Below are positions 4,244 through 59,100 of a DNA stretch of 64,000 bases, in pieces (position 1 is the stretch's first letter; each line of letters opens with the position of its first letter). A program made the position numbers and the translations under genes. The notes below the pieces were generated by a model. The model had not been told where the DNA came from and did not search any database. It saw only the letters and a program-made list of their open reading frames with translations. Source of the DNA: an uncultured delta proteobacterium (GTDB lineage Bacteria; Myxococcota_A; Polyangia; Palsa-1104); NCBI GenBank assembly GCA_963785725.1, contig CAWAWS010000007.1, positions 352,001 to 416,000 of the forward strand, read 5' to 3'.

Positions 4244-5356
4244 ATGATCGGCTTCCTCGAAGAGCGGCACATCGCGTTGCGCTATCGCGCGCAGGCTTGG
4301 GTCGACGCGGCCGGGCTGGAGAATGACCACGATCCGGCCGAGCTCGTCGCGCGGCTGGCGCGTCACGAGCTCTTGCGCGCCTGCGTGCCGGCGGCGTACG
4401 GCGGCCTGCGCGAGCGCGTCGAATTGCGCGACTTGTGCGTGCTGCGCGCGGTCATCGGCTATCGATCGTCGCTCGCCGACACGATGTTCGCCATGCAGGG
4501 CCTCGGCAGCTATCCGGTGACGCTGGCTGGCACCGAAGCGCAGAAGCAGGCGCTCTTGCCGTCGGTGGCGAATGGTCAAACCATTTGCGCGTTCGCGATC
4601 ACCGAGCCGGAAGCGGGCAGCGACGTGTCGAGCGTCAGCACGCGCGCGGTCCGCGACGGCGATGGCTACGTCATCGACGGCGTCAAATGCTTCATCAGCA
4701 ACGCCGGGCTCGCGCACTCGTACGTGCTGTTCGCGCGCACGTCGGACGATCGGCATCGCGGCCTCACGGCGTTCCTCGTCGACGGCAAAGCCAATGGTTT
4801 AACCATTACGCCGACCGAGCTCATCGCGCCGCATCCCATCGGCACGGTGACGTTGCGCGGCGTGCGCGTGCCGGCGTCGGCGCGCGTGGGCGAGGAGGGC
4901 CAAGGCTTTCAGCTGGCGATGGCGACGCTCGATTTCTTCCGCACGTCGGTGGGCGCGGCGGCGTTGGGCATGGCGGCGCGCGCGCTCGACGAAGCCAAGG
5001 CGCGCGTCAAGGCGCGGCGGCAGTTCGGCAAGGCCCTGAGCGAGTTTCAGGGCACGCAGATCGCGCTCGCCGACATGGCCGTCGACGTCGCGGCGTCGCG
5101 GCTGTTGGTGTTCTCGGCGGCGCAGCGCATCGACGGCGCCGATCAGCCGGGCAGCGTCGACGCGGCGATGGCCAAGCTGTACGCGACGGAGGCGGCGCAG
5201 CGCGTCGTCGATCGCGCCGTGCAGCTATTCGGCGGGCAAGGCGTGGTGGCCGGCTGTATCGTCGAGCGGCTCTATCGGGAAGTGCGCGCGCTCAGAATTT
5301 ACGAGGGCACGAGCGAGATCCAAAAGCTCGTCATCGCCAAGGCGCTGCTGCGCTGA
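4244..5356 (+). CDS. Acyl-CoA dehydrogenase
   Basis: [33 protein letters not shown]. Confidence 0.95.
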
Positions 5357-5496
5357 AACGCGCGGTCCACGGGCATTTACGCGACAGTCGACACGCGGCG
5401 GGCGCGCAGGGCGGGCGCGCGCATCGGGCGACTGCGCTCGGCAGCGTGCTCGTCGGGGCGTCCGACGCGACATTCGACGGCATGCATCATCGCTGG

Positions 5497-5680
5497 TTCG
5501 GCGCGGAATGCGACGGCGTGCACTATCGCGCGGTCGGCGCAGAATGTGACGGCATGCGCCATCGCGTGTTCGGCGCGGAATGCGACGGCATGCGCGATGG
5601 CGCGTTCGGCGCGGAATGCGACGGCATGCGCGATGGCGCGTTCGGCGCGGAATGCGACGGCATGCGCGATGGCGCGTTCG
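5497..5680. repeat. 36-bp tandem repeat, ~5 copies
   Basis: Unit TTCGGCGCGGAATGCGACGGCATGCGCGATGGCGCG at 5497, 5533, 5569, 5605, 5641. Confidence 0.9.
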
Positions 5681-5820
5681 ACGAGCAAGCGACGGCCTAT
5701 TTGCTGCTCGGCTCGGTCGCGCATCCGACGGGGGCGTTCGATAGCGCTGTCGCGCTGCGCGGATCGCGATAAATTACAGCTCGCGGCGCTGACGCGTTCG
5801 CAAAGGGAATGGTTCAACCA

Positions 5821-6186
5821 ATGCCGCATTACGAGAAGCACGTCTTCATCTGCACCAACGAGCGCGACAAAGACAACCCGAAGGGCGACTGCGCGCGCCG
5901 CGGCTCCGACGACATTCGCGACGCGTTCAAGAAGGGCATTCACGAGCGCGGCTTGAAGGGGCGCATGCGTGCCAACGCGGCCGGCTGCCTCGACCAGTGC
6001 GCGTTCGGGCCCACCGTCGTCGTCTATCCCGAGCAGGTTTGGTACTCGGTGCCGACGCGCGCGGACGCCGAGGAGATCATCGAGAAGCACTTGGTCGGCG
6101 GTGTTCCCGTCGAGCGGCTGCTGTTGCGCACGAACAAGGACAAAGAGCAGGACAAAGCCGGCAAGGAAGGCAAAGAGCCCAAATGA
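5821..6186 (+). CDS. Thioredoxin-like [2Fe-2S] ferredoxin
   Basis: HVFICTNER...C...AGCLDQCAFGPTVVVYPEQVWY. Confidence 0.92.
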   Translation: MPHYEKHVFICTNERDKDNPKGDCARRGSDDIRDAFKKGIHERGLKGRMRANAAGCLDQCAFGPTVVVYPEQVWYSVPTRADAEEIIEKHLVGGVPVERLLLRTNKDKEQDKAGKEGKEPK

Positions 6187-6437
6187 AGAAGCCGCAAATT
6201 CTCGTCGGTGTGGCCGGGCTGGCGCTCGGTCTGTTGCTCGGCGGCGCGTTCATCGGTCGCGCGCATGCGCAGCAGCCGGGCGCACGCTTTCAGTACATGT
6301 GCCAGACGAAGCTGAACAAAATCTGGACCCCCGAAGCGCAAGCCAGGCTCAACGAGCTGGGAAGCCAGGGCTGGCAGCTCTTGCCCACGCGCAGCCCAAT
6401 GAACGAGGACGTCTATTGCTACGAGCGTCGCTTCTGA
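6183..6437 (+). CDS. Small secreted hypothetical protein
   Basis: ATGA overlap with the ferredoxin stop, signal peptide ending AHA, LNELGSQGWQL motif. Confidence 0.75.
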   Translation: MKKPQILVGVAGLALGLLLGGAFIGRAHAQQPGARFQYMCQTKLNKIWTPEAQARLNELGSQGWQLLPTRSPMNEDVYCYERRF

Positions 6438-6485
6438 ATGGTTTAACCAATCTTCGGATTGGTTAAACCACTCGTCGCTGCCGTC

Positions 6486-7961
<1,476 letters not shown>

Positions 7962-7978
7962 AGGGAATGGTTAAACCA

Positions 7979-10017: not shown

Positions 10018-10772
10018 GGCGCCTCGGCGAGCTGACCTGGCCCGAAGCCGAAGCCCTGCGCGCGCGCGAGCCGATCATGCTCGTGCCGATCGGCTCCACC
10101 GAGGCGCACGGCCCGCACTTGCCGCTGGCCACCGACACTATCTTGTCCGACGAGCTGGCGCTGCGCGCCGCCGCTGCGCTCGAAGCCGACGGATACGCCG
10201 CCGTCATCGCGCCCGCGCTCGCCTACGCCATCACCGACTATGCCGGCGATTTCCCGGGCACGATCTCGCTGACCGCTGCGACCGCCGTCGCAGTTTTATC
10301 GGACATCTGCAGCTCGCTCATCGGTCGCGGCTGGCGTCGCGTCTGCCTCGTCAACAGCCACCTCGAGCCGGCGCACGTGACGTCGCTGAAGGACGCTTGC
10401 GCGCAGGCGTTCGCGCGCACCGGCGTCAACGTCGCGTTCGCCGATCAGCTCGATCGGCGCTGGGCGCGCACGCTGACCGACGAGTTCAAGCGCGGCGCCT
10501 GCCACGCGGGAAGCTACGAGACGTCGCTGGTGCTGGCGGCGCGACCGGAGCTCGTACGCGACGAGCTGCGCCGCGGATTAGTGGTTAAACCAATCGACCT
10601 GGCCAAGGCGATGCGCGAAGGCAAGCGGACGTTCATCGAGGCCGGCGCCGACCAGGCGTACTTCGGCGACCCGGCGGGCGCTACGGTTGAAGAGGGCAAC
10701 GACATCTACGCGCGGCTGGTGGTCATGGTCGTCGAGACCGTGCGCGCCGCGTGGCCAATCGAGAATGGTTAA
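10014..10772 (+). CDS. Creatininase-family amidohydrolase
   Basis: LTWPE...VPIGSTEAHGPHLPLATD, FPGTIS, HAGSYETS. Confidence 0.92.
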   Translation: MRRLGELTWPEAEALRAREPIMLVPIGSTEAHGPHLPLATDTILSDELALRAAAALEADGYAAVIAPALAYAITDYAGDFPGTISLTAATAVAVLSDICSSLIGRGWRRVCLVNSHLEPAHVTSLKDACAQAFARTGVNVAFADQLDRRWARTLTDEFKRGACHAGSYETSLVLAARPELVRDELRRGLVVKPIDLAKAMREGKRTFIEAGADQAYFGDPAGATVEEGNDIYARLVVMVVETVRAAWPIENG

Positions 10773-11412
10773 ACCAATTTCGAAATTGGTTTAACCATTC
10801 AGTGGGCGTTCGCGCGACCGACTTCGGAAGCGATCCACGTCGAGCGACGAAATCGATGCGCGAGCCTGCTTCCTCCACGTTCAATCGACGATGGGTGAAG
10901 TCGAGGTCGACGCGCCCGAGATGGGTCGGATAGTTCGTCTCGGCGTATCGACCTGTCTCGGCGTATCGATCGGACTCAACACGCCGATTCGGTATCGGCT
11001 GGGAACGCCAGACGGTGGGAACGCCGACGGAATGCCGAGACGGGTCGGCACGTCATGAGAGACATGCGGCGAGGCGGGGCTTTAAGTTTCAGCCGGGGCC
11101 GGCGCGACGGACCGATTCGGTGTGGCGAGACAGCCGAATTCGGTGCGGGCAGATTCGACGCAACCAACTCATCGGCGCTACCAACTCATCGGCACGTTGA
11201 CACCGATCGGGCAGCCGTAATGGAGTCCGTGCGCCGAGACTGATTCGTGCGGCGAAGTCGAGTCTCGCGCCGCTCCGCCGCGACTCTGCCCGCTCCGATG
11301 GAGCCGAGAGCCAGAGCGCGCCTGACGATGAGAATGCCGTCGCCGCGCTGAGCATAATGGTTAAACCAGTCCTGGAATTGGTTTAACCATTCGGCGGGCG
11401 TTCCCGCCAGCG

Positions 11413-12017: not shown

Positions 12018-12469
12018 GTGGGCGTTGGCGTGCTTACACAAGATGCAACAGGCGGTCGCGGCAAGGTCCGGCGCGCGGGTGCATCGTCGGCGATGTGCTC
12101 GAGTCGATCGCTTATTCACGCGCGAGCCGTGAGCCGTGCGCAGCGCCCAAATCGAAGCGAGCGCCTGAACCGAAGATTGGTTGAACCACGCGTAGCCAGC
12201 AGCGTTGCTTCCGAGTCGTGCGCGCGAACCGAGGAAGCGAGAGATCGTGGCGCGCGTTACGCGGGTCGCGGTTACGTTGTGCGCGTACACCGAGGCGCGA
12301 GAAATCGCGGCGCGTAGCATGCGCTGGGGCTCGAAGTGGAGTTGTGCGAATAGGTCGAGGAGACCAGAATCGTCGCGGGCGTTGCGCGGGCCGCGGCTGG
12401 AAGTGGAGTTGTGCGCGTGGACCTAGAGCGGGAGAAATCACCGCCGCGTGCGCGCGCGACTGATCGAGA

Positions 12470-12800
12470 GTGAATCGTGCGCGAGAGGCTGAAGAAATCG
12501 CGGCGCGTTGTGCGCGCGCGACGGATCGGGATGGAGTCGTGCGCGAGAGGCTAAGAGAGCGCGGCGCGTTACGTGCGCGACGGATCGGGACGGAGTCGTG
12601 CGCGAGAGGCCGAAGAAATCGCGGCGCGTTACGCGCGCGATCGAGATTGAGTCGTGCGCGAGAGGCTAAGGAATCGAGCCGCGCTCTGCGAGCGACGGAT
12701 CGGGATTGAGTCGTGCGCGAGAGCCTGAAGAAATCGCGCTGCGTCGCGCGTGCGGCGGACGCGCTTGAGTCGTGCGCGCGAGCCGAGGGCTGAAGAATCG
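12470..12800. repeat. Degenerate ~58-60 bp tandem repeat, ~6 copies
   Basis: Recurrent GAGTCGTGCGCGAGAGGCT(G)AAGAAATCGCGGCGCG. Confidence 0.8.
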
Positions 12801-13162: not shown

Positions 13163-14728
13163 CTACGCGAAGTACCGCGCCTCGTTGTCGAGCAGCCAGC
13201 GCCCGCATCGCGTCGCCAGCGCCATGATCGTAATCTGCGGATTGACGCCGATCGGCCCCGGAAACACGCTGGCGTCGGCGACAAACAGCCCAGGCACATC
13301 CCAGCTCTCGCCGTGCGGATCGACCACCGACGACCGCCGATCGACGCCCATACGACACGTGCCCATCGCGTGCACCGTCAAACACTCGACCTCGTTCTTG
13401 GGGATCGAATGGTTGAACAACTGGCGAATCTCGTCGGGGGAATCGATCGACGTCAGGAAATCGAACGGCAACAGCACTCGCTTGGCGCCCGACGCGAACA
13501 AGATCTCCGACGTCAACGCCACGCCGCGGATGAGGTTGGCGAAATCGCGATCGTTGACGTCGTAGCGCATGCGCGCCTCGCCGAAGAGGTCGAGATCGAC
13601 GGTGCCGGTGCCGGTGTCCTCGACGAGGCAGCCGGCGGCCAGCATCTTGTCGTAGTCCTGCATGATCTCCCACGAGCGCGCGCCGAAGTAGGGCAGCGAC
13701 ATCGCGATGAGCCCCGGCGGCACCATCGACGTCGTGATCATGATGCCTTCGTCGATGAACTCGCGGATCTGGTTGCCCTGGATGGTCCCCTTCCACGCGT
13801 GAATCGGCTTGTCGTACACGCCGATCACTTTCGAGTTCGGATGACACAAGAAGTTGCGCCCGACCTGCCGCGAAGAATTGGTTAAACCATTGCGCAGCAA
13901 CAACGCCGGCGTCTGCACGGCCCCGCACGCCAGCACGACCACCTTCGCGCGCACCGTCAATTTGGGCCCGCGTTTGCCGCTCTCGGGATGACGAAAGCGA
14001 CCGACGATTCCCGTCGCGCGCGAGCCATCGGTGACGACGCGCTCGACTTTGCAGCCGCTGAACAGCCGCCCGCCCGCCGCGAGCAGACGCGGAACATACG
14101 TGACGAGCACCGACTGCTTGGCGTCGGTCGGGCAGCCGAACGCGCAGTTATTGGAGCCGCAGCAGTGCTTCTGGCTGCGCATCGCCGGCACGTAGTGATA
14201 GCCGAGCTTGTCGGCGCCGCGCTCCATGAGCCGCGCGTCTTCACCGACGGACTCGGGATCTTGCGGGCGCACGCTGACGCGCTCTTCGACCTTCGTGAAA
14301 TAGGGATCGAGCGCCTCGGGCGTCATGTCGCTGAGCCCGTGCTCCCACTGCCAGCGCTTGAGCACCTTTTCCGGCGTTCGCCAGCTCATGGCGCCGTTGA
14401 TCACCGTCGAGCCGCCGACGCAGCGCCCTTCGGAGAAGATGATGTTCGGCTTGCCCATGATCGGCGCCGAGCCGGCGTTGCGATAGAGCTTCTTGATCAT
14501 CGTCGGCGCGTTCAGGCCGAAGTCTTTGGACGTGTAGTGTCCGCCCTCTTCGACGACGACGACGGAGCGGCCGCCCTCGGCGAGCTCGGCGGCGATGGCG
14601 CCGCCACCGGCGCCGCTGCCGACGACGACGACGTCGCAGTCGACGACAAGGTCGCGTCCGGAATTGGTTAAACCATTGCCCCCACCGGCGACGCGGCCGG
14701 CCATGACGTCGTCAAATGTCGCCAGCAT
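13163..14728 (-). CDS. GMC family oxidoreductase
   Basis: VVVGSGAGG, GRCVGGSTVING, LACGAVQTPALL, HAMGTCRMG, GVNPQITIMA. Confidence 0.95.
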   Translation of the reverse strand: MLATFDDVMAGRVAGGGNGLTNSGRDLVVDCDVVVVGSGAGGGAIAAELAEGGRSVVVVEEGGHYTSKDFGLNAPTMIKKLYRNAGSAPIMGKPNIIFSEGRCVGGSTVINGAMSWRTPEKVLKRWQWEHGLSDMTPEALDPYFTKVEERVSVRPQDPESVGEDARLMERGADKLGYHYVPAMRSQKHCCGSNNCAFGCPTDAKQSVLVTYVPRLLAAGGRLFSGCKVERVVTDGSRATGIVGRFRHPESGKRGPKLTVRAKVVVLACGAVQTPALLLRNGLTNSSRQVGRNFLCHPNSKVIGVYDKPIHAWKGTIQGNQIREFIDEGIMITTSMVPPGLIAMSLPYFGARSWEIMQDYDKMLAAGCLVEDTGTGTVDLDLFGEARMRYDVNDRDFANLIRGVALTSEILFASGAKRVLLPFDFLTSIDSPDEIRQLFNHSIPKNEVECLTVHAMGTCRMGVDRRSSVVDPHGESWDVPGLFVADASVFPGPIGVNPQITIMALATRCGRWLLDNEARYFA

Positions 14729-15776
14729 GACGGCGCAACCTTTCTGCGCTCACCAGCGCCACGTGCTCGTCGACGGTGTAGCCGAGCAGGGCGCCGACGC
14801 GCGGGTCGGAGTAGTAGGCGAGCAGGCACAGGCCTTTGACCGCCTTGATGAGATCGCGACGCAGGCCCCAGCGCGCGTGCACCCAGCTGTCGACGTAGCG
14901 GCCGCGGCGCGCCAGCGACATCGACGAGAACGGCACCAGCGACGGGCCGAGCAGGAAGGCGCCCAGCTCCAGCATCATGAGCCCGATGGGAAAGAGCAGC
15001 TTCAAGAGCCGCGGCATATGCGGCACATAGTCGTCGATGAAGCGCACGTAGTCGTCGAGCGGCAGCGCCGGCGCGCTGGGCCCGATTGGTTGAACCACTT
15101 CCGCGAGGGCGCGCACGACGCGGCGTGACCACGGCCCGAGCGTGCGCGGCGCCGGCCCGCCGCCGTCGGTGTTGGCGCCGGCCGAGCCGTTCGCCGCGCG
15201 GCCCGGTGTCGACGCGCTGCCTTGGCGGTTCGCGTTCGCGGCGGCAACAGGCGCGCCGTTTGCCGCGCGGGTTGGCGTCGGCGCGCCACCGTTCGCGTTC
15301 GCGCTTGCGTTCGCGCTCGCCGTGGCCGACGCACTGTTCGCCGCTCGGTCGGCCGCAGCTGCGCTGCTTCCGTCTGCGACGTCGCGGCGCGGTGTCGGCG
15401 AGCCTCCACCGATGTCGGGCGCGGTCGCATTCGCGGGCGAGCTGTTGCGGTGGGCCGTCGTCGCCGACTGCGTCCCCGCTTCCGTCAGCGACGACGACGA
15501 CGCTGCTGTCCGCGACGACGCCGCCGCTTCCGTCAGCGACGACGCCGCTGCTGTCAGTGACGACGACGCCGCTGCTGTCAGCGACGACGACGCCGCTTCC
15601 GTCAGCGACGACGACGCCGCTCGCCCGACCATCGACGCGCCGGCCGCCTGCCCGACGTCCATCGCCGTCGACTTCGCCGTCGTCGCGTCGTCGCGCGTCG
15701 TCGCCGCGCCCAGCGCCGAATTGTCGAGCCCACGCGCCGCGGTCGTCGGCGGCGTCGGCTCCGGCGGTCGACTCAA
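14712..15776 (-). CDS. GMC partner protein (gluconate 2-DH subunit-3-like C-terminal ~140 aa) with long Ala/Ser/Thr low-complexity N-terminus; true start uncertain
   Basis: C-terminal PFSSMSLARR...KGLCLLAYYSDPRV..LGY is typical of partners encoded before GMC enzymes; lies between the GntR and GMC genes. Confidence 0.6.
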   Translation of the reverse strand: MSRPPEPTPPTTAARGLDNSALGAATTRDDATTAKSTAMDVGQAAGASMVGRAASSSLTEAASSSLTAAASSSLTAAASSLTEAAASSRTAASSSSLTEAGTQSATTAHRNSSPANATAPDIGGGSPTPRRDVADGSSAAAADRAANSASATASANASANANGGAPTPTRAANGAPVAAANANRQGSASTPGRAANGSAGANTDGGGPAPRTLGPWSRRVVRALAEVVQPIGPSAPALPLDDYVRFIDDYVPHMPRLLKLLFPIGLMMLELGAFLLGPSLVPFSSMSLARRGRYVDSWVHARWGLRRDLIKAVKGLCLLAYYSDPRVGALLGYTVDEHVALVSAERLRRHAGDI

Positions 15777-16570
15777 CGCTTCCTCTTGGTGCCGCGCGTC
15801 CGCCCGCGCCCGCTCGCCGCCGCAGTCTCGTCATCGAGCCGCTCCGGCGCCAGCTGCCCCAAGACGAGCCCGCTGCGCGATTCGAGCACGTCGGCCATCT
15901 TGCGCCGCGCCTCCTTTTCGTCGCCGGTGCTCATGCGCGTCACGACGTCGTCGAGCGCGTCGAGGTAAGCGCCGTCGATCTTCCACAGCTGCGGATAGCG
16001 CTCGCCGAGATAGGCAAAAATGCGCGCGAACGTATTGAAGACCCAGACCAAGACCGTCGTCTTCGACGCCAGCACGAGGTGGCGATAGAAGTTGATGTCG
16101 GCCAGCACCGCTTCGATCGTGCCGCTCTCGACGACGCGCAGCTCGTCGAGCGCACGGCGCAGCGCGCGCAGCTCGGTCTCGGCGTGCCCACCCGTCGCTG
16201 AATGGACGGCCTGATCGATGAGCTGATCGCGCAGCCGAAACAGCGTGTAGACGGCGTCGAAGCGCTCGTCGATCGGCGTCTCCTCGGCGAGGAAATGCGG
16301 CAGCAAGTTGATCTCGCCCACCGCGCGCCAATCGAGCACCAGTGTGCCGTCGCCTTGCCGCGCGCGCACCAGCTTCTCCGACTCCAGCGTGCGCAGCGCC
16401 TCGCGCAGCGTGTTGCGGTTGGTGCCGAGCTTCAGCGCCAGCTCGCGCTCGGGCGGCAGCCGCGCGCCCGGCTGATAACGGCCGAGCAAGATCTCGCGCC
16501 GCAGCTTCTCGACGACCGTCTCACCACGCGCCCGCCGCGCCGACGGGGGAAATTGGATTGGTTTAACCAT
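15773..16570 (-). CDS. GntR-family, FadR-type transcriptional regulator
   Basis: wHTH: ILLGRYQPGARLPPERELALKLGTNRNTLREALRTL...RQGDGT; the following DWRAVGEINLL resembles the FadR linker. Confidence 0.92.
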   Translation of the reverse strand: MVKPIQFPPSARRARGETVVEKLRREILLGRYQPGARLPPERELALKLGTNRNTLREALRTLESEKLVRARQGDGTLVLDWRAVGEINLLPHFLAEETPIDERFDAVYTLFRLRDQLIDQAVHSATGGHAETELRALRRALDELRVVESGTIEAVLADINFYRHLVLASKTTVLVWVFNTFARIFAYLGERYPQLWKIDGAYLDALDDVVTRMSTGDEKEARRKMADVLESRSGLVLGQLAPERLDDETAAASGRGRTRGTKRKR

Positions 16571-16634
16571 TTGTAGAATTGGTTAAACCAATCGCGGGCA
16601 GTCGTCAATCGCAGTTTCGCTCTATCCTGCTTCC

Positions 16635-17696
16635 GTGACCGCACTCTTCCGCGCCTTTCCGCAGCTGACCGCGCGTATTCCCTGGCTGTCGCTGGGCCGT
16701 TTTCCTACGCGGGTTCAGCGCCTCGAGGGGCTCGTGCCGCCGTCGGTCGAGCTGTGGGTCAAGCGCGACGACGAGAGCGGCGTCGTCTACGGCGGCAACA
16801 AAGTGCGCAAGCTCGAGTTCCTGCTCGCCGAGGCGCGCGCACGCGGCGCACGACGACTGGTCACGCTCGGCGCCATCGGCTCGCACCACGTGCTGGCGAC
16901 GGCCATCTACGGCCGGCAGGCCGGCTTTGCCGTCGACGCCGTCGTGTTTCCGCAGCCGCTGACGCCGCACGTGCGCGAGCAGCTGCTGGCCGACGTCGGC
17001 GCCGGCGCGACGATGGTCGCCACGCGCGGATACGCCGGCGTGCCCTGGGCATTGTGGCGACGGCGGCGCGCGCCGGACGCCGCTTGGATCGCGTCCGGCG
17101 GCTCGTCGCCCACAGGCACGCTCGGTTATGTGTCGGCCGGCCTCGAGCTGCTCGAGCAGATCGGGCGCGACGAGCTGCCGGCGCCGGATGTCGTCTATGT
17201 CGCGCTCGGCTCGTGCGGGACGGCGGCCGGACTGCTGCTTGGGCTCGCCGGCGCGCCGTCGTTGCCGCCGTCGAAGGCGCAGCTGACGGCAGTGCGTGTC
17301 GTCGATCGCATCGTCGCCAACGCGCGGGTGACGCGCGGGCTGGCGCGGCGGACGGCGCGGCTGTTGTCGGAGCGCGGTGTCGATTGGTTTAACCATTGCT
17401 CGTTACCGTCGCTGCGAGTCGAGCATGGGCAGTTCGGCGGCGGCTACGGGCGCGCCACGAACGCGTCGGAAGCGGCGGTGGCGCGCGCGGCCGCCGTCGG
17501 GCTCGCCCTCGAGCCGACCTACACCGGCAAGGCCATGGCGGCACTGCTCGCCGACGCCGATGCCGGCCGCCTCGACGGCAAGCGCGTCCTGTTCCTACAT
17601 ACGTTCAGCTCGGCCGACCTGTCGCCGCTGATCCTCGCGGCCACGCCTGAGCAGCTACCGCCGTGGCTACGTCGCCATTTCGCCGATGGCAAGTGA
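16635..17696 (+). CDS. D-cysteine desulfhydrase / ACC deaminase family PLP enzyme
   Basis: LWVKRDD...GGNKVRKLEFL, ALGSCGTAAG, LEPTYTGKA. Confidence 0.9.
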   Translation: MTALFRAFPQLTARIPWLSLGRFPTRVQRLEGLVPPSVELWVKRDDESGVVYGGNKVRKLEFLLAEARARGARRLVTLGAIGSHHVLATAIYGRQAGFAVDAVVFPQPLTPHVREQLLADVGAGATMVATRGYAGVPWALWRRRRAPDAAWIASGGSSPTGTLGYVSAGLELLEQIGRDELPAPDVVYVALGSCGTAAGLLLGLAGAPSLPPSKAQLTAVRVVDRIVANARVTRGLARRTARLLSERGVDWFNHCSLPSLRVEHGQFGGGYGRATNASEAAVARAAAVGLALEPTYTGKAMAALLADADAGRLDGKRVLFLHTFSSADLSPLILAATPEQLPPWLRRHFADGK

Positions 17697-17880
17697 CGCG
17701 AGCGCCGATCGACTATCGCCGAGCCCCATTTCGCCGACGGCAAGTGACGCGAGCACCGACCGACTATCGCCCAGCCCCATTTGCCGCTGGTGACGGCGCG
17801 AGCACTGATCGGCTATCGCCCAGCCTCGTTTGCCGCTGGTGACGGCGCGAGCACTGATCGGCTATCGCCGAGCCCCATTT
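17675..17880. repeat. ~50-bp tandem repeat (x4) seeded from the 3' end of the upstream gene
   Basis: CCATTTCGCCGAYGGCAAGTGACGCGAGC..CTATCGCC at 17675, 17726, then degenerating at 17777 and ~17826. Confidence 0.85.
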
Positions 17881-18042
17881 CGTCGCTAGCCTGGAGATTG
17901 GTTAAACCAATCGGCGCGCCATTCCTGCTGTGGGGTGCGACACGTCAGCGGCACTCTGGCGAGATCCAGCAAGCCGAGATCTGCGCCGTACGGACGGTTC
18001 GGCGCCCGGCCCAGCTGAGCTCCAGCGCAATCCAGCCGAATT

Positions 18043-18726: not shown

Positions 18727-18945
18727 TGGTTAAACCAATCGCAGCAGAGGGTTGAATCGATCGACACCACGGATCTCTTGACCGGCGCAAGGGTTAAGCC
18801 GATCCGCGCAGCGGATCAAGCAGTCGGCGCAATGGTTAAACCAATCGGCGCAGCGGATCAAGCCGGAGCGGATGGTTAGCCAATCGGCGCAATGGTCGAC
18901 CGAGCGGCACACCGTTGGAGCGATCCGCCCGTGGTCGACCACCGG

Positions 18946-19070
18946 GCGCAATGGTTAAACCAGTTGGCGCAATGGTTAAACCAGTCGGCGCAATGGTTAA
19001 ACCAGTTGGCGCAATGGTCAAACCAGTGGGCGCAATGGTCGAACCAGTGGGCGCAATGGTTTAACCAATC
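18946..19070. repeat. Array of six palindromic sites with an exact 21-bp period
   Basis: Unit GCGCAATGGTTAAACCAGTTG; cores at 18952, 18973, 18994, 19015, 19036, 19057; degenerate copies extend back to ~18727. Confidence 0.95.
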
Positions 19071-21275: not shown

Positions 21276-22157
21276 ATGTCGAAACCGAATTACCGCGCCA
21301 CCCTCATCTTCGATACCGACCGCAAAGTCTTCCTCGCCCGCGCTCCCGAGCTGGAGCATTGCAGCGCCGAAGGCGCCAACCGCGCCGAAGCCCTCACCAA
21401 GCTGGAAGAAGAGATCGACGCGCAGCTGGCCAACATGCTGTCGCACGGCTCGACGCCGCCGCGCGCGGTCGACGAAGAGGTTTTCACGGGCGAGATCGCG
21501 GCCAAGGTTTCGAAGCAGCTCCATCGTGAGCTGGCGTTTCAGGCGCGTTCGGAAGGCATCGAGCTCGATCAGATCGTGGGCGAGCTGTTGGCGGCGGCGA
21601 TGGAGTCGCGCAAGCAGACGCGCGGCACCCGCGGCGGCAATCGCGTCGCGCAAGAGCACACGCCGAACGACAACGTCGGCAATCGCTACGAGGGTGGCGG
21701 CGGCGGTGGACCGCGCCCGCAGCGCGGATTCGGCGGACGCGGCGCGAACAACCACTTGCTCGACGATCGCGCCAACTTCATCGAGTACGTGCGCGGGCTC
21801 GAGCAGCAGGGCACTGGTATGACCAATCGTCACGGCGGCGGCGGGCACGGCCAGCCGCGCGGCGACGGCGACCGCGGTGGACGCGGTGGACGCGGCGGAC
21901 GCGGTGGACGTGGCGGCGCCGGCGGACCGCGCGGCGGCAACCCGAGCCATGGCGGACAGAATCGCGGCATGCAGGGCGGCGGTCCGCGTCCGCAGGGCAA
22001 CTTTGGCGGCGGGCACGGCGGCGGCGGCGCGGGCAACGGCGCCGGCGGCAATGGTCACGCGGCGGCGGGCAACGGCGCGCATCACGCGGAAGCGAGCGCG
22101 GCGCCGCAGCACCACGACGCGCCGGCGCACGACCCCGAGTCGGGCGGCAACGTCTAG
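21276..22157 (+). CDS. HicB-like protein (RNase H-like fold plus probable RHH) with a long Gly/Arg-rich tail
   Basis: FLARAPELEHCSAEGANRAEAL and FTGEIAAKVSKQLHRELAFQARSEGI resemble HicB; AGGAG SD; tail RGGRGGRGGRGG. Confidence 0.75.
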   Translation: MSKPNYRATLIFDTDRKVFLARAPELEHCSAEGANRAEALTKLEEEIDAQLANMLSHGSTPPRAVDEEVFTGEIAAKVSKQLHRELAFQARSEGIELDQIVGELLAAAMESRKQTRGTRGGNRVAQEHTPNDNVGNRYEGGGGGGPRPQRGFGGRGANNHLLDDRANFIEYVRGLEQQGTGMTNRHGGGGHGQPRGDGDRGGRGGRGGRGGRGGAGGPRGGNPSHGGQNRGMQGGGPRPQGNFGGGHGGGGAGNGAGGNGHAAAGNGAHHAEASAAPQHHDAPAHDPESGGNV

Positions 22158-30739: not shown

Positions 30740-30790
30740 GACGGGCATCCTATCCGAAAACATGCTACAAGGGACGTGGAGGACAAGTAG

Positions 30791-31329: not shown

Positions 31330-31990
31330 TCGAGACGAGATTGGGTAGCGGTGACGCGAGGCCGCTGCTTCGACGTCCTGATTCGATCGAGACGGCTCGC
31401 GTCGAAGTCGCGCAGCAGCTTCTGCTTTCGACCGATTCGATCGACATCCGTTCGGCGTCGGAGTTGCGCGCCGGCTTCTGCTTCGACTGATTGGAGCGAG
31501 ATACGCTCGCGTCGAAGTCGGGCAGCGCTTCCGCTTTCGACTGATTCGATCGAGAGACGCTTGCGTCGGAGTCGCGGGCTGCTTCTGCTTCGACTGATTT
31601 GGAGCGAGATACGCTCGCGTCGAAGTCCCGCAGCGCTTCCGCTTTCGACCGATTCGAGCGAGATACGCTCGCGTCGAAGTCGGGCGGCGGCTTCTGGTTT
31701 CGACTGATTTCGATCGAGATCCGTTCGGGTCGAGATCGCGCAGCTGCTTCTACTTTCGACTGATTTCGAGATACGCTTGCGTCGAAGTTGCGCGGCGGCT
31801 TCTGGTTTCGACTGATTCGATCGACATAGGTTCGGGTCGGATCGCGCAGCGGCTTCCGCTTTCGACGTACTGATTTCGAAGCGCGTCGCGTCGAAGTCGC
31901 GCGGCCGCTTACTGCTTTCAACGTGTTGATTTCGATCGAGGCAAGATTGCCGTCGCGTCAACGGTTCGCGCGGCCGCTTCCGCCTTCGAG
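31330..31990. repeat. Degenerate ~55-bp tandem repeat, ~10 copies
   Basis: Recurrent GCGTCGAAGTCG...GCTTCTGCTTTCGACTGATT...GAGATACGC; inverted relatives at ~29970-30100. Confidence 0.8.
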
Positions 31991-32714: not shown

Positions 32715-32933
32715 CGAATTCCCTTTCACAGTGTCGATCGCCAAGTGTCCCTCGAAGGACGCTAGCACGCGGCGTCAACCGTCGCCAGCGCGATGCGTCA
32801 GATTGGTCAAACCATTAGCACGCGTTTCCGAAATTGGTTAAACCATTGCCGCGCGTTTCCCGGCAATGGTTTAACCAATCGTGGTCGCTGGTTCAACCAT
32901 TATGGTTCGTCGATCGCGTGCTACGATCATCGC

Positions 32934-33680
32934 GTGGACGCTGCGACCCTCGCGCGCCGACTAGTGGCGCTGCCCGCCGCCGCGATGCGCCAGGCCGCGC
33001 TGCGCGCGACGCTCGATCCGCTCGACGACGAGGCGGCGGCGCGTTTGTGCGGCGAGCTCGTGCGGCGCGGGCCCGATGGCTCCCCGTTCGATGTCGCCCT
33101 GTTGGCGCTGACGGCGCTGCTCGACTCGAACGCGCTCGGCTACGAACGGCACGCGGCGCTCTACGCGACGGCGCGCCGCCTCGACGACGAGCAGCTCAGC
33201 CTGCTCCTGTTGTCGGCGCAACCGCCGCCGCCTGGCCGTCCGCAGGCGGTCGAGTTTCCCGGGCGCGAGCTGACGCTGGGCGAGCGGAAGTCGTTGGCGC
33301 GCGGTCGGCGTCGCGAGCTGCTCGATCGACTGCTGCGCGATCCCGACGACAGCGTGCTCACGATCTTGCTCGGCAATCCACGCATCACCGAGGCGGACGT
33401 CGTGCGTCTGGCTGCGCGCCGACCGACGACGGCCGCCGCGCAGCGCACGATCCTCAGGTGCGAGCGGTTCATCGCGCGCTACGCGGTGAAGCGGGCCCTC
33501 GTGTTCAACCCCTTCACGCCGACGGATTTGGCGTCGCGCCTGCTCGTCTTGTTGGCGCGGCCCGATCAGCACGCCGTCGCCGCCGACGCGTCGCTGCACG
33601 ATACGGTGCGCGCCGCCGCGCGCGCCGCCGTGAAGCGCCCGGCGATTGGTTTGACCTTATTGCGCGGCGGAAAAGAGTAG
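32934..33680 (+). CDS. Hypothetical alpha-helical protein
   Basis: LTLGERKSLAR...LLGNPRITE...ALVFNPFTP; GTG start 6 nt after TACGAT. Confidence 0.75.
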   Translation: MDAATLARRLVALPAAAMRQAALRATLDPLDDEAAARLCGELVRRGPDGSPFDVALLALTALLDSNALGYERHAALYATARRLDDEQLSLLLLSAQPPPPGRPQAVEFPGRELTLGERKSLARGRRRELLDRLLRDPDDSVLTILLGNPRITEADVVRLAARRPTTAAAQRTILRCERFIARYAVKRALVFNPFTPTDLASRLLVLLARPDQHAVAADASLHDTVRAAARAAVKRPAIGLTLLRGGKE

Positions 33681-34184
33681 GCGTCATTCCGGTCAGCGTG
33701 GGCGGAGGCTGCGTTGGCGTCGCCTCGTGGTAGTCGGCACGGCAGGCGGCGCTCGTTCTCATCACGCGACACGAAGCATTGGGCACTTCCTCGTTCGACA
33801 CGGCTCTCGCCCTCGCCGCCGATTGGTTTGACCTCTGCGCGCGTCACAATCGGCTGTTCAAGGGCGAGGCTGGTTCGCTCGCGATCGAGAGGGAGCGCGC
33901 GCCCTCTCGCAACGCCCGGATGCACGGCTGAATCGAATACCAACGAATGGTTAAACCAATGCGCGCAGTGGGTTGCGCGCGGTCGACAGGGACAGCGAGC
34001 TCCGCGCAACGCCCGGATGTACGGCTGAATCGAATACCAAGAATAGTTAAACCAATGCGCGCAGTGGTTTAACCAATGCGCGCAGCGTGAGCCAAGGCGT
34101 TGAGTGGTCAACCAGCGCGCTGAAGTAGTTAGCCAATGCGCTGAGTGGTTAGCCGGTTAGCTAATGCGCTAGGTCGTTAGCCAA

Positions 34185-34290
34185 TGCGTTCATTGGTTAA
34201 ACCAATGCGTTCATTGGTTAAACCAATGCGTTTATTGGTTAAACCAATTCGTTTATTGGTTAAACCAATGCGTTCATTGGTTAAACCATT
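34185..34290. repeat. Array of five palindromic sites with an exact 21-bp period
   Basis: Unit CATTGGTTAAACCAATGCGTT; cores at 34194, 34215, 34236, 34257, 34278; decayed copies from 33948. Confidence 0.95.
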
Positions 34291-34308
34291 GTGCACTGAT
34301 CGGCGGGA

Positions 34309-35247
34309 CTAGAAGACGAAGGCGCCGGAGAAGCTGAGCTGGACTTGGCCGCGTGACCGGTCGGTAATTTGCGTGGGATCGACCTTGCCGCAGTCGGTGG
34401 CGCTGTCGTTGCAAAACGTGTAGGCGAATTCGCCGGTGAACGCGAGGAAGTCGTAGAGCACCCGGAAGCCGGCGAACATGCGCCAGCGAACGATCGTGTC
34501 GGGATCGGGGAATATCGTGTTGGCGTTGATGTCGTTGGAGGTCGCGCCCTGTTTGTAGCTGTCGACGGCGGGCGTCGTGTCGATGACTTCGCCGCGCACG
34601 AAGCTGAGCAGCGCGCCGGCGCCGATGTACGGATCGAGCGTGAACGTGCCGCCGACGCCGAACGACTTCGAGACGGTCGCATCCAGCGCCAGCGTCGTCA
34701 GATCGACCTCGCCCGTGCCGAGCAGGTGCGACACCGACGCGCGCACCGCCAGCGACGGCAGCGCCCAGCCGTGAAAGCCCTCGTGCAGCGCAAACTTCGC
34801 GTAGCCTTGCACCGCGTACAAATTGCTGTCGATGAGCTTCGTCGCGCCGGCGCCGACCTCGAAGCCGGGCAGCGGCCACCACAATCCTTTGCGCGCCATC
34901 ACCGAAATCGTCGACAAATAGCTCGAGGAAACGCTGGATACGCCCTGTTTCCAGTAATCGGCGTTATTCGATATCTGCGTAAATTGCGTTTCGAATGCCA
35001 ATTGAAAGCCGGAATAGCCGAGCGTATCGGCGGGCGCCAGCGGTCCCGGCGCCATCACCAGCGACAGCTCGCTCATGAGGCTCTTGTACATCGACTGCCG
35101 CGTCGGATCGGTCGGATCGTTGAACGTCCCCGGCGTCGACGGTGGGCCGATGATGCGTTCGAGCGTCAAGTCGTTGCGGTCGGCGCGCGCGCGCAAGGGC
35201 AGCGCGGCGACGGCGAATGCGCACAGACCGACGGTGAGCGCGCGCAT
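34309..35247 (-). CDS. Putative outer-membrane beta-barrel protein
   Basis: Signal peptide (ARA), alternating beta strands, C-terminal Phe (LSFSGAFVF). Confidence 0.7.
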   Translation of the reverse strand: MRALTVGLCAFAVAALPLRARADRNDLTLERIIGPPSTPGTFNDPTDPTRQSMYKSLMSELSLVMAPGPLAPADTLGYSGFQLAFETQFTQISNNADYWKQGVSSVSSSYLSTISVMARKGLWWPLPGFEVGAGATKLIDSNLYAVQGYAKFALHEGFHGWALPSLAVRASVSHLLGTGEVDLTTLALDATVSKSFGVGGTFTLDPYIGAGALLSFVRGEVIDTTPAVDSYKQGATSNDINANTIFPDPDTIVRWRMFAGFRVLYDFLAFTGEFAYTFCNDSATDCGKVDPTQITDRSRGQVQLSFSGAFVF

Positions 35248-35312
35248 GTCCGTCGACGAGGCTAACCGCGCGCTCTCTTGAGTGTCAAGAAACGTTGCAG
35301 TAGCGTCGGCGC

Positions 35313-36104
35313 ATGTCCTATAGCGAGATCTTGTATGAAGTGCGCGACTCGGTCGCTCGCATCACGCTCAATCGGCCCGACAAACGCAACCCGCTCGGCC
35401 CGACGACGATCGGCGAGCTTCTGCACGCGCTCGACGGCGCCAAGCGCGACGACGGCGTGCGCGTCATCGTGCTCACCGGCGCCGGCAAGGTGTTTTCGGC
35501 CGGCGGCGACCTGTCATCAATGGGTAGCGGCGGTACGCCCCTGCAAGCGAGCGGGAGTGGTTCAACCAAAGCGGGAACGTTCGTCGATCTGAACTTGGCG
35601 CTCACGCAGGTGGGCAAGCCGACCATCGCGATGGTCAATGGTCACGCGCTGGCGGGCGGGCTCGGGCTCGTCGTTGCGTGCGACGTCGCCATCGTCGCGG
35701 ACGACGCGCAGCTGGGGACGCCGGAGATCAACGTTGGGCTGTGGCCGATGATGATCATGGCGACCATCTTCCGCAACGTGCCGCGCAAGCGTGGGCTCGA
35801 GCTCATCATGACGGGCGACAAGATCTCGGCGGCGCAGGCGGCCGAGCTCGGCTTGGTCACGCGCGCCGTGCCGCGCGATCGGCTGGAGGCCGAGGTCGAT
35901 GCGCTGGCGCAGAAGCTGGCCGCGAAGTCGCCGATCGTGATGAAGCTCGGGCTGGAGGCGTTTTATCGCGTGCAGGACATGGAGTTGGAGCCGGCGCTGC
36001 AGTATCTGCAAGGGCAGCTCATGGCGGTGTTGTCGACGGAGGATGCGCGCGAGGGCTTGATGGCGTTCCTCGAGAAGCGCGCGCCGCAGTGGAAGGGGAA
36101 GTAA
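35313..36104 (+). CDS. Enoyl-CoA hydratase/isomerase
   Basis: ITLNRPDKRN, FSAGGDL, KPTIAMVNGHALAGG, PEINVG. Confidence 0.95.
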   Translation: MSYSEILYEVRDSVARITLNRPDKRNPLGPTTIGELLHALDGAKRDDGVRVIVLTGAGKVFSAGGDLSSMGSGGTPLQASGSGSTKAGTFVDLNLALTQVGKPTIAMVNGHALAGGLGLVVACDVAIVADDAQLGTPEINVGLWPMMIMATIFRNVPRKRGLELIMTGDKISAAQAAELGLVTRAVPRDRLEAEVDALAQKLAAKSPIVMKLGLEAFYRVQDMELEPALQYLQGQLMAVLSTEDAREGLMAFLEKRAPQWKGK

Positions 36105-36390
36105 GCCCAGCGCCCGTTGTGCAATGGTTAAACCAATTGCGGGATTGGTTTAACCATTGAATTTTCCGTTGCGTTGGCAGCAAGCGAGCAGCGGCCGCTG
36201 CGAAATTGTGGTCAGGCGGCGCGGCCGCCGTTGCGAACTTGTGGTTAGGCGGCGCGGAGGCCGCCGCGAACTTGTGGTTAGCCGCGCTGCGGCTGTCGCG
36301 AGTCGTGGTCAGACCGAGCCTTCCTCGATGGTCAAACCATTCGCCTGATTGGTTTAACCATTCGCGAAGCCGCCGATCGGCGGTGGAGCG

Positions 36391-37509
36391 TCAGGGCTGC
36401 GGATCGGCGCAGCAGCGGAAGCCGGTGGAGTAGTCGTGATACGTCTTGGCGTGGGCCGTCGTCGTGTAGAGGCAGCCGGGACCGTTGATCTTCGCGTCCA
36501 CGAAATAGCCGCCCTTGAAGATGCCGTCGCCGGCGCTGCTCGTGGCGTCGATCCACTCGTGCAGATTGCCGTGTAGATCGTAGATGCCCCAGCTCGACAC
36601 GCAGCGCGGAAAGCTGCCGCCGGGCGCGACGGTGTTCGGCTGGTCGTCGCAGCAGCTGCTGTTCATGTTCGCGGACGTGAATACGTCGCCGGTGCCGAAG
36701 CAGTCGTTGACGGGATTCGTCGCGCGGCCTTCGTTGCAGGCACCGGCCTGGTAGGTGTTGCCGTAGGGATAGGTCCAACCTTGCGGCCCTTGGCAGGCGG
36801 CCAGCCATTCGCTCAGCGTGCACAGTCGCTTGTGTGCGGCGGCGCAGGCGGCGGCGGCCTGCGCTTCGCTGATGTAGCCCTGCGGCTTCACGCCGTCCGC
36901 GACGACGGCGACAATGGTTGAACCTTCGGCGACCGTGTCGACGGGCTGATCGTACGGATGCGCCGTCACCGCGCCGGTCGCGTCGACGACTTCGGTCGCG
37001 GCCTCGAAGCGGTCGACGCAAACGGCGCTGGCGCTCGTGCTCGTGCCACCGCCGCCGCCGTTCGCCGTGCCGCCACCAGTTCCGCCGCCATTTGTGCCGC
37101 CGCCGCTCGAGCTGCCACTCGAACCCGCCCCGCCGCTCGAGCTGCCACTCGAACCCGCGCCGCCGCTCGAGCTGCCGCTCGAACCCGCGCCGCCGCCGCT
37201 CGAGCTGCCACTCGAACCCGCGCCGACGCCGTTCGCGCCGCCGGTTCCGCCGCCATTCGGACCCGCGCCGCCGCCATCGGCGGTCGCGCTGCCGCCGTCG
37301 GCGGCGACGAGGCTGACGCGCGCCATGCCCGCCGGACAGCCGTTGCCTGCGTCGGGCGGTGCGGCGCCGCCGTCGCTCGTCACGCCGCCGTCATGCCCGC
37401 CGCCGCCGTCGCGCGCGCTGCCGCCATCGGTCACACGCGGGCTGTGCGACCGCGAGCAATTGGTTAAACCAATCGCGACCACCCAAGCGCACACGCGAAA
37501 TCGGCGCAC
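36391..37509 (-). CDS. FGE/SUMF1-domain lipoprotein with Gly/Ser linker
   Basis: CVDRFE, KRLCTLSEW, GIYDLHGNLHEW, TGFRCC; GSSGSSSGG repeats. Confidence 0.88.
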   Translation of the reverse strand: MRRFRVCAWVVAIGLTNCSRSHSPRVTDGGSARDGGGGHDGGVTSDGGAAPPDAGNGCPAGMARVSLVAADGGSATADGGGAGPNGGGTGGANGVGAGSSGSSSGGGAGSSGSSSGGAGSSGSSSGGAGSSGSSSGGGTNGGGTGGGTANGGGGGTSTSASAVCVDRFEAATEVVDATGAVTAHPYDQPVDTVAEGSTIVAVVADGVKPQGYISEAQAAAACAAAHKRLCTLSEWLAACQGPQGWTYPYGNTYQAGACNEGRATNPVNDCFGTGDVFTSANMNSSCCDDQPNTVAPGGSFPRCVSSWGIYDLHGNLHEWIDATSSAGDGIFKGGYFVDAKINGPGCLYTTTAHAKTYHDYSTGFRCCADPQP

Positions 37510-37549
37510 GCCTCAGGATAACGGAAGACGACTGTGCTAGGGCTAATGC

Positions 37550-38950
37550 GTGTCATTTCGCGATCGCTACGAGCCCTTCATCGCCTGGCGTTACCTCTAT
37601 CGCCCGCGGCAGAACAAGACGGTGCGCACGCTGACGCTGTGGCTGCTGGCCCTGACGCTGCTCACGCACGTCGCGGCGCTCTTCGCTCACACGCAGCTGC
37701 AGGTGGTCGGCACGGCGCTGGCGCTGCCGTCGCTGCTATCGTTCCTGTTTTGCCTGCTGCTCAACGTCTTCTCGGGATTTACGACGGTGTCGATCATTGG
37801 TGTGACCATTGGCGTGCAGGCGTTGATGGTCGTCTTGGCCGTGACCTCGGGCTTTCAGCAGGCGTTCAAGCAGAAGGTCCTCGGCGTCAACGCGCACGTC
37901 ATCGTCATGAAGTACGGCATGGACTTCGCGGAGTATCGCGACGTCATGAAGAAGGCCGAGCAGCAGCCGCACGTCAAAGCGGCGGCGCCGTTCGTGTTCA
38001 TCGAGGCGATGGTGGCGGCCGACAAATCGTTCGGCGCGATGATCAAAGGAATCGACCCGGTGCGCTCGCTGCAGGTGCTCGACGTCAAGCAGAGCCTGGT
38101 CAGCGGTCGGGTCGAGGAGCTGGCGCGGCGCGCACCGCCGAACGATGGCGGCGATCCGCTGCCGTCGGCGCTGATGGGCAAGGAGCTGGCGAAGAAGCTG
38201 CACGTCAAGCTCGGCGATCGCGTGCGCCTCGTGTCGCCGAAGATCGATCTCGACCCCGGCGCCGGGCAGCTGGCGTCGCGCGAGTTTCGGCTCGCGGGCG
38301 TGTTTTCCACGGGATTCCAAGAGTACGACAGCCGCCTCGTCTACATCAACGTCACCGACGCGCAGGCCTACACCGGCAGCGGCGACGTCGTCACCGGCGT
38401 GGAGCTCAAGCTCGACGACGTCGACAAGGCGCAAGCGGTGGCCAAGACGCTGTACGCGAATTTAGGCGGACCGCCCTATCGCGTCATCGATTGGGAGGAG
38501 CTGAACCACAACTTGTTCACGGCGCTGCGCATGCAGAAGGTGATCATCACCGTCATCTTGACGCTGATCGTGATCGTGGCGGCCTTCAACATCATCGCCG
38601 CGATGACGCTGCTCGTGATTGGTAAGACCAAAGAGATCGCGATCCTGAAGTCGATGGGCATGCGTTCGGCGGGCGTGGCGCGGCTGTTTCAGGCGGCGGG
38701 TTTGGTGATGGGCGGGCTCGGCATCACATGCGGTCTCGGCGTCGGAGCAGCGACGGTGGCGGTGCTGCGGCGCTACAATTATCAGCTCGATCCGCATGTC
38801 TATTTGATCGATCAGCTGCCGGTGAAGGTGAACGCCGACGAGGTCTTGTTGACGGCGGGAATCACGCTCGCGATCTGCTTCGTGGCGACGCTGGTTCCGG
38901 CGCTGCAAGCGGCGCGGTTGGAGCCGGTCGAGGGGCTGCGGTACGAGTAG
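37550..38950 (+). CDS. lolC: LolC/LolE lipoprotein-releasing ABC permease
   Basis: VLAVTSGFQ...LGVNAHV, VAAFNII, KTKEIAILKSMG, PVEGLRYE. Confidence 0.9.
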   Translation: MSFRDRYEPFIAWRYLYRPRQNKTVRTLTLWLLALTLLTHVAALFAHTQLQVVGTALALPSLLSFLFCLLLNVFSGFTTVSIIGVTIGVQALMVVLAVTSGFQQAFKQKVLGVNAHVIVMKYGMDFAEYRDVMKKAEQQPHVKAAAPFVFIEAMVAADKSFGAMIKGIDPVRSLQVLDVKQSLVSGRVEELARRAPPNDGGDPLPSALMGKELAKKLHVKLGDRVRLVSPKIDLDPGAGQLASREFRLAGVFSTGFQEYDSRLVYINVTDAQAYTGSGDVVTGVELKLDDVDKAQAVAKTLYANLGGPPYRVIDWEELNHNLFTALRMQKVIITVILTLIVIVAAFNIIAAMTLLVIGKTKEIAILKSMGMRSAGVARLFQAAGLVMGGLGITCGLGVGAATVAVLRRYNYQLDPHVYLIDQLPVKVNADEVLLTAGITLAICFVATLVPALQAARLEPVEGLRYE

Positions 38951-59085: not shown

Positions 59086-59100
59086 ACCCGTTCTCCTTCG

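Follow-up and report, generated by a model that had tools for sequence, protein, structure and literature searches.

Dense patches of a FadR/PdhR-like operator motif in the chromosome of an uncultured Polyangia bacterium: candidate nucleoprotein foci of a co-opted GntR repressor

What could maintain one short palindrome at about two copies per kilobase over a sharply bounded run of functionally unrelated genes? The question is raised by a 64,000-nucleotide stretch of contig CAWAWS010000007.1 (the window) from an uncultured delta proteobacterium of the class Polyangia (assembly GCA_963785725.1; here G000, 8.89 Mb in 47 contigs, with the window at C7:352001-416000). A preliminary description had counted about 67 TGGT-N3-ACCA cores by eye and estimated that less than one was expected by chance. 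The exact number is indeed 67 TGGTNNNACCA cores, the first starting at 4573 and the last ending at 38630, while 100 dinucleotide shuffles gave a mean of 0.20 and a maximum of 2. The reported absence of cores from 38631 to 64000 also holds, and no site is found there even at one mismatch to WTGGTYNRACCAW; the degenerate copy noted at 874 is present. GC content ranges from 62 to 71% across the window, with no compositional step at either domain edge. Some edge copies had been described as the most degenerate; the right edge shows no decay gradient and is the end of a synteny block, the gene order shared with the congeners G002, G003, and G004 breaking just past 38950.

4573 to 38630, no strand: domain A; its 67 TGGTNNNACCA cores form 45 groups with a median gap of 590 bp and follow the consensus AWTGGTTNAACCAWT
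874 to 884, no strand: isolated one-mismatch site to the left of domain A; full sites lie over the same flank in congeners and in G012/G007

The domain, first described as a single one, is one of four in the genome. We counted 206 cores in G000, 165 of them within four patches of 11-34 kb (A to D) at 1.7-2.4 per kb, and 136 of the 137 copies of the stricter form TGGTTNAACCA lie inside these patches, in less than 1% of the genome. High-scoring matches to AWTGGTTNAACCAWT, the 15-bp palindromic consensus of the sites, occur at about 2 per kb inside the patches versus 0.0001-0.003 per kb outside. In a scan of all spaced palindromes with 4-bp arms and gaps of 0-14, none in the genome was as locally clustered as the site motif; the two that ranked next were repeats within repeat-protein genes, and no other non-repeat palindrome clusters alike. 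DNA uptake sequences (DUS) and HIP1 are genome-wide motifs present at about one or two per kb and imposed on coding sequence. A motif of that type, which the preliminary description had proposed to look for by a genome-wide count, is ruled out by the confinement of the strict sites to the four patches.

C7:421119-435703: patch B, 30 cores, beginning 5 kb beyond the window end
C33:40114-64016: patch C, 41 cores
C39:304428-315876: patch D, 27 cores

The motif had been said to match no known class, but only parS, ram, and matS had been compared. Judged from its sequence, AWTGGTTNAACCAWT belongs to the FadR/PdhR-type operators. The box recognised by PdhR reads (A)ATTGGTnnnACCAAT(T) (PMC7660256), and the FadR-subfamily consensus is an A/T-rich palindrome with TKGT and ACMA boxes 3 nt apart, paired sites at constant spacing being common in the family (PMC4494728). 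A candidate regulator of this subfamily is encoded within domain A.

15773 to 16570, minus strand: P0001, FadR-subfamily GntR regulator of 265 aa with winged helix, FCD domain, and basic C-terminal tail; putative binder of the sites
16557 to 16592, no strand: putative autoregulatory operator pair with 21-bp spacing; the P0001 start codon (M-V-K-P-I) lies within its first site
13163 to 15116, minus strand: 134-aa gene and GMC oxidoreductase gene, downstream of the regulator

P0001 scores 76 bits against PF00392 and 26.7 bits against PF07729 (cut-off 24.3), and the best structural matches of its predicted model (pLDDT 72.5) are FadR-type proteins. It reaches no NCBIfam equivalog cut-off, the best score being 60 bits versus the 157-442 set for the PdhR, LldR, FadR, NanR, and GlcC models. 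The operator pair over the start codon is kept in all seven close orthologous loci with an assembled gene start, and the winged helix of close orthologs is almost invariant. The last 25 residues contain 6-13 Lys/Arg in the Polyangia orthologs, whereas distant homologs and paralogs have 1-4. Distant homologs, too, are followed by the GMC gene, which is therefore probably part of the ancestral target operon. P0001 is probably the binder of the sites, and it very likely binds AWTGGTTNAACCAWT as a dimer.

A second FadR-type GntR gene (C19:148331-149032), 35 kb from dnaA and present in most genomes of the order, was set aside as the binder because it lies outside the patches and its distribution covers the order, in which the motif shows no enrichment. 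Scattered intergenic TGGTCNGACCA sites at C2:62066, C2:269118, C5:20715, C15:384697, and C23:27344 may be targets of this paralog; at C15:384697, G001 and G004 have a site as well.

The proposal that a sequence-specific protein coats the locus fits the site pattern, which points to such a protein. Among 155 non-redundant sites, the W positions and flanks were no more complementary than in shuffled controls, and arm complementarity stops at the fixed consensus. This excludes a REP-like hairpin or cruciform element and indicates that the site is read as duplex DNA. The spacing of neighbouring sites is also constrained: 37 of 161 spacings are exactly 21 bp, of which 11 fall in tandem-copied arrays and 26 outside them with unrelated linkers. 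The same value accounts for 17 of 18 short spacings in congener loci and for all seven in G010, G007, and L143, while a 20-bp pitch is found in 18 of 21 short spacings in G012 and in both of those in L149/L150. NanR dimers bind cooperatively via N-terminal extensions (PMC8012715), and a lineage-wide pitch of two helical turns suggests a comparable dimer-dimer contact here. Helical phasing over longer distances (R 0.28 at 10.5 bp) was left aside because the arrays confound it. Groups of closely spaced sites in the window include the following.

18944 to 19067, no strand: array of six tandem site copies with a 21-bp period
34181 to 34288, no strand: array of five tandem site copies with a 21-bp period; it lies between convergent genes and is shorter in a related strain
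10763 to 10800, no strand: two sites in an inverted 21-bp pair that together make up a perfect 38-bp palindrome over a stop codon
25064 to 25339, no strand: five sites between the convergent ends of a kinase gene and an RluD-like gene
32804 to 32899, no strand: four sites; a 31-bp unit with one site (32808-32840) is missing in contigs of two sequencing runs

The explanation that we favour, with our confidence evenly divided, is that a FadR-subfamily repressor has been co-opted to form bridged nucleoprotein foci comparable to those of Bacillus subtilis Rok, built from cooperative dimer pairs 21 bp apart. Two dimers would bind cooperatively on one helix face at the fixed 21-bp pitch (20 bp in one other genus). 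With sites every ~0.6 kb, bound dimers would cross-link each patch into a compact focus, and they could also link the three or four patches together in the fashion of Rok clusters. A new site would pay only beside existing ones, and selection would then act on local density and not on particular sites, which would produce the abrupt edges, the rapid turnover, borders that drift, and now and then a new patch. Autorepression from the start-codon pair would scale the protein supply to the site number. Arm alignment by ParB and SMC would bring together patches lying 1.0-1.2 Mb either side of oriC, and, from what is known of the family, an FCD-bound metabolite may dissolve the focus. The sequences themselves show the site pattern, the motif class, the nearby regulator with its operator pair, the co-occurrence of the two, the fixed pitch, the turnover, the recoding, and the birth of a patch; binding, cooperativity, bridging, contacts, and ligand control are what we infer from them. 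A bolder version is rather doubtful: the patches would be an evolvable chromosome element of a new kind, in which the operator of a metabolite-sensing repressor has turned into a self-nucleating architectural code, with density as the selected property, arm-aligned patches gathered in a ligand-switchable hub, and patches born within the genus that rewrite proteins as they form.

The patches are not a normal regulon, as had been argued from the unrelated functions of the genes in the domain. By our own gene list, the 67 sites of domain A are densest in convergent gaps (21 sites, 5.9/kb), followed by divergent gaps (7 sites, 3.4/kb), tandem gaps (21 sites, 3.4/kb), and coding sequence (18 sites, 0.8/kb), although uncalled small genes may distort these gap lengths. 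Patches A to C contain genes for enoyl-CoA hydratases, acyl-CoA dehydrogenases, a CoA ligase, acyl carrier protein (ACP), and ketoacyl synthases, and the patches also hold thymidylate synthase, dihydrofolate reductase (DHFR), an S1-domain gene, TatA, a kinase, and a lytic transglycosylase. Across the genus these three loci, A, B, and C, are shared, and congeners bear sites there too, mostly elsewhere in the locus. Patch D is different: the eight congener stretches that hold its orthologs (112 kb) contain zero cores, versus 27 in G000. In G012, patch B extends with 17 sites over the orthologs of C7:436-456k, where G000 has none, and two further site pairs at another locus form a mini-patch absent in G000. 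Sites are not concentrated at promoters, and target genes are not conserved between related genomes (patch D, the G012 extension and mini-patch), as they would be in a classical regulon. The density in convergent gaps, the turnover of sites, the rewriting of codons (see below), the genome-unique patch, and the shifting edges all argue in the same direction.

It could still be that the lipid and acyl-CoA genes of patches A to C are under regional control by the repressor, either directly or through DNA topology as has been proposed for GalR. The presence of these genes and the location of some pairs on gene starts agree with such control. We nonetheless consider it improbable, given that the highest density lies between convergent ends, that thymidylate synthase, DHFR, the S1-domain gene, TatA, and the kinase are found inside the patches, and that target sets differ between genomes.

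Relatives were checked as the preliminary description had suggested, and the enrichment was found in one Polyangia subclade, where it tracks the GntR-FCD ortholog with two exceptions (G011 and G007, see below). Orthologs were searched among 41 genomes and the motif was counted among 401 genomes of the class, a tally that includes the unpublished genome G331. The five closest regulator loci as well as L134 and L145 may come from the same assemblies as G-numbered genomes and were not counted as independent. Orthologs of P0001 with at least 50% identity are present in G000-G004, G010, G011, and G012; the close orthologs of G001-G004, G010, and G012 sit inside a patch with the pair on the gene start. 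The WTGGTTNAACCAW counts are 121 in G000, 31 in G002, 31 in G012, 21 in G001, 18 in G003, 11 in G004, 5 in G010, and 5 in G007. Elsewhere, G063 has 7 (the five listed lie on five contigs) and all other genomes have 3 or fewer.

Outside this subclade the motif resembles an ordinary operator. Distant homologs in Gemmatimonadota and Planctomycetota have one upstream site per 20-kb locus. In other Myxococcota classes, each of the 15 homolog-bearing genomes has 1-7 scattered sites, and upstream of the gene an exact TGGTTNAACCA is found at 4 of 14 loci and a degenerate core at one more. Distant homologs thus have at most one or two operators, which indicates that saturation is derived. The L149 locus (47% identity) keeps the patch A gene order over 18.3 kb with only the autoregulatory pair, and could represent either the ancestral state or a loss, as the base of the ortholog tree is unresolved.

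To see how sites arise, the 165 patch sites were compared with congeners: 103 are unaligned, 23 are aligned with gaps, and 39 are gap-free. Among the gap-free sites, 18 are shared with congeners and 21 are not. At the 21 unshared sites the differences are restricted to the motif's 15 bases, and congeners stand 8.2 mismatches away from the consensus versus a background of 10.8. Gene conversion that copies sites with their flanks was not seen in these 21. In the 18 of these that have a gene call, amino-acid change is raised under the motif: 119 of 249 codon comparisons differ there versus 171 of 644 in the flanks. The excess of changes at congener-invariant residues is not significant (10/47 versus 18/141, p=0.16), which together with the motif-confined differences indicates that sites were built by several substitutions at tolerant residues. 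Duplication also multiplies sites: the window contains the two 21-bp arrays, one of which is shorter in contigs of one run. In patch D, the radical-SAM gene at C39:311249-313030 (L030:11249-13030) has an in-frame insert of ~160 residues between two domains that consists of imperfect repeats, contains 8 operator sites, and is absent in congeners. Sites that are dispersed, costly, tied to a position, and individually replaceable fit selection on local density.

The same observations bear on the idea of a self-propagating drive, in which sites would accumulate because the bound protein locally biases mutation, replication slippage, or inter-strain recombination, much as uptake sequences accumulate across whole genomes, and the structure would bring no benefit to the cell. 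The tenfold spread of site numbers within one genus would suit a drive, as would the new patch and the site-bearing insert found in G000 only and the variation of arrays between close strains. Its best support is the excess of site-free tandem repeats, which make up 6.1, 5.4, 8.0, and 2.2% of patches A, B, C, and D versus a mean of 1.1% over 421 windows. The expansions in the window are as follows.

5475-5696, 12443-12782, 15476-15654, 17675-17882, and 31378-31919, no strand: site-free tandem-repeat expansions, enriched in the G000 patches

However, loci from relatives show little repeat excess (0-4.4% in 22 loci), and the single new sites, which need ~8 motif-confined substitutions with unconverted flanks at places already near the motif, look like stepwise selection and not copying. 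We regard a drive as unlikely.

The patches could also be a titration sink or reservoir. The many repressor dimers stored there would then determine when, and at what threshold, a ligand switches a small true regulon (the own operon and an aconitase-like gene with a lone site before it). The conserved autorepression pair and the tandem arrays in cheap intergenic DNA agree with a sink, and so does C20:273119, the sole perfect TGGTTNAACCA outside the patches. This site is a candidate ordinary target, as it lies upstream of a gene whose aconitase-like label comes from a reading of its N-terminus by eye and not from a database. But arrays alone would suffice for titration, and neither the even ~0.6-kb coverage nor the costly coding sites would be necessary; we find a sink rather unlikely.

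For the position of the patches in the chromosome, a G002 circle was built from seven larger contigs ordered by one end overlap and by the gene order shared with G000. Strand skew was too noisy to place contigs. In this scaffold of G002, which has three patches, A lies at +0.97-1.00, C at +1.06-1.07, and B at about -1.23 Mb from dnaA, that is, 25-31% along arms of ~3.9-4.0 Mb. This A-B-C belt may be a position mark, or it may be one ancestral patch cut by origin-symmetric inversions.

The preliminary description had included chromosome segregation among the possible roles, and had suggested looking for canonical parS elsewhere. Canonical parS was found at C19:123.7k beside dnaA and also in G002 at C2:660k, with the patches about 1 Mb off. 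A single dif-like site is present in all five genomes examined, on C26 in G000 and ~2.8 Mb from the patches in the G002 scaffold, and SMC is encoded in 14 of 15 family genomes. As canonical parS, dnaA, SMC, and the dif-like site are all elsewhere, a role as centromere or terminus is unlikely. The dif-like site (C26:217120) and smc (C26:179584) are ~35 kb apart in G000, G002, and G010. A lone perfect parS-type palindrome was also observed at C16:16102; the neighbouring region of that contig maps beside dif in G002.

The patches might instead be a positional landmark for division or development, like RefZ with its binding motifs (RBMs) or SlmA, with DNA-bound protein marking a cell position a quarter to a third along both arms and acting on a partner such as FtsZ or a membrane anchor. 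The location of patches on both arms of the G002 scaffold at similar fractions of arm length supports a landmark, and TetR repressors have been co-opted likewise (PMC6657595). A fixed distance from oriC on both arms, in the style of the RBMs, fits A, B, and C in one scaffolded genome but not patch D; borders shift by ~20 kb in G012, and no partner gene was identified. A landmark function appears quite unlikely on this evidence.

In G000 itself, patches A and B are separated by 30 kb, and the junction that brings them together forms the right edge of domain A.

38951 to 39222, no strand: putative inversion breakpoint, forming the right edge of domain A and placing patch B 30 kb away

The G000 arrangement is best explained as one origin-spanning inversion of the G002 order, with the reciprocal junction on C36, and this argues against a chimeric contig near 38.7 kb, which had been named as a finding that would refute the preliminary reading. 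The intergenic stretch at the junction matches a dispersed repeat of ~100-190 bp (70-88% identity) found in many places in the genome. Among the contigs of four DNA runs, no listed piece spans 38951-39222, and in patch C the acyl-CoA dehydrogenase and S1-domain genes (C33:43878-48823) look fragmented in the gene calls, from either assembly error or real decay; these two points would be expected of an assembly artefact. The same patches are nevertheless found in G001-G004, G012, and metagenome contigs, and by a crude test frame switches are not enriched in the patches (1/30 versus 10/60). Together with the reciprocal junction, this makes an artefact extremely improbable.

Several observations weigh against bridged foci of a co-opted repressor. 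The P0001 model resembles an ordinary FadR-type dimer in which no additional domain for bridging can be recognised, and L149, too, has the basic tail, without site saturation around its gene. Sites and regulator do not coincide in every genome: G011 (86% complete) has an ortholog of 50% identity, its gene start missing, and no TGGTTNAACCA, while G007 (51% complete) has sites but no ortholog was found. At 9 of 14 homolog loci in other classes there is no exact core near the gene. A finely adjusted structure would hardly be expected to vary from 13 to 137 sites within one genus. Gap-free alignment was limited to 39 of the 165 sites, and the test on congener-invariant residues gave no significant excess. 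As for position, patch D lies outside the belt at 1.0-1.2 Mb, among genes that in G002 are found within ~0.5 Mb of oriC. Patch C could not be placed in G000, the C33 flanks matching scattered G002 parts or nothing. Origin-symmetric inversions of one ancestral patch would yield the belt without any positional function.

Among known systems, the one whose way of working appears closest is Rok, contacts and bridging being predicted here by analogy. Rok is a repressor found at eight discrete chromosomal clusters whose genes are mostly outside its regulon; the clusters contact each other, and Rok bridges DNA (PMC11841835, PMC9757077; also PMC13404874). Here too there are several discrete site clusters that do not match a regulon (four in G000, three in G002). 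Unlike Rok, which prefers AT-rich and often foreign DNA, the present system uses a strict 15-bp operator in GC-rich core genes; the putative binder is a GntR protein, the patches have the same GC content (62-71%) as their flanks, and their genes are syntenic across the family. From FadR-subfamily GntR regulators (E. coli PdhR, FadR, and LldR; NanR) the system has the winged helix plus FCD, the FadR fold, and a TGGT-N3-ACCA operator equal to the PdhR box (PMC7660256). The A/T-rich TKGT-N3-ACMA palindrome at the own promoter expected of the subfamily is found as well. What separates it from them is the 165 cores in four patches, intragenic and dense at convergent ends, in place of promoter operators.

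RefZ with its RBMs and SlmA with its binding sites (SBSs) likewise reuse a repressor scaffold for position, and RBMs occur on both arms (PMC6657595). RefZ has five RBMs and SlmA dozens of dispersed SBSs, whereas the patches here contain ~two sites per kb; the fold of those proteins is TetR against GntR-FCD here, and strict conservation of position is not seen in the present system. Metabolic regulators that have been proposed to shape chromosomes via sites that do not regulate a nearby gene are E. coli GalR and Zymomonas Fur; saturated, sharply bounded patches are not described in the abstracts of these reports (PMC5110547, PMC11162768). The system is not a member of the Rok, the TetR-landmark, or the GalR/Fur systems. 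Position-restricted clusters of one palindrome are a feature of matS (MatP) and ram (RacA) as well as of parS (ParB). These differ in motif and binder, the G002 patches are not at oriC or dif, and canonical parS is separate. We found no description of domains saturated with a GntR operator in the literature searched, with few subscription papers within reach.

Few position-specific nucleoprotein domains are known, and those rely on dedicated proteins. In the present case the putative binder is a FadR-type repressor of standard kind that should be easy to purify, and its site has 15 bp. The related genomes offer a natural gradient (2, 10, 13-40, and 137 sites), with fixed 20- or 21-bp pairs and a newborn patch, which gives a direct way to test how a nucleoid organiser can develop from a transcription factor and which selection favours clustered sites. 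If the bolder version is true, the clade holds the full series from a lone autoregulatory operator to a multi-locus hub, a transcription factor caught becoming a chromosome organiser. The operator seems strong enough to recode core genes locally, and site and protein might together provide a portable module for engineering chromosome contacts.

Some minor observations complete the picture. C39:1-20k, on the contig with patch D, matched nothing. A 6.2-kb gap without sites in patch C matches a long open reading frame (ORF) of which congeners share just the first 93 residues. In domain A, a 293-aa protein encoded at 21276-22157 on the plus strand had zero Pfam or NCBIfam matches; its first ~180 residues are conserved (61-79%) at the locus across the family. 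Finally, a tRNA-Met(CAT) gene was located at 59100-59174 on the minus strand of the window, outside the patch.

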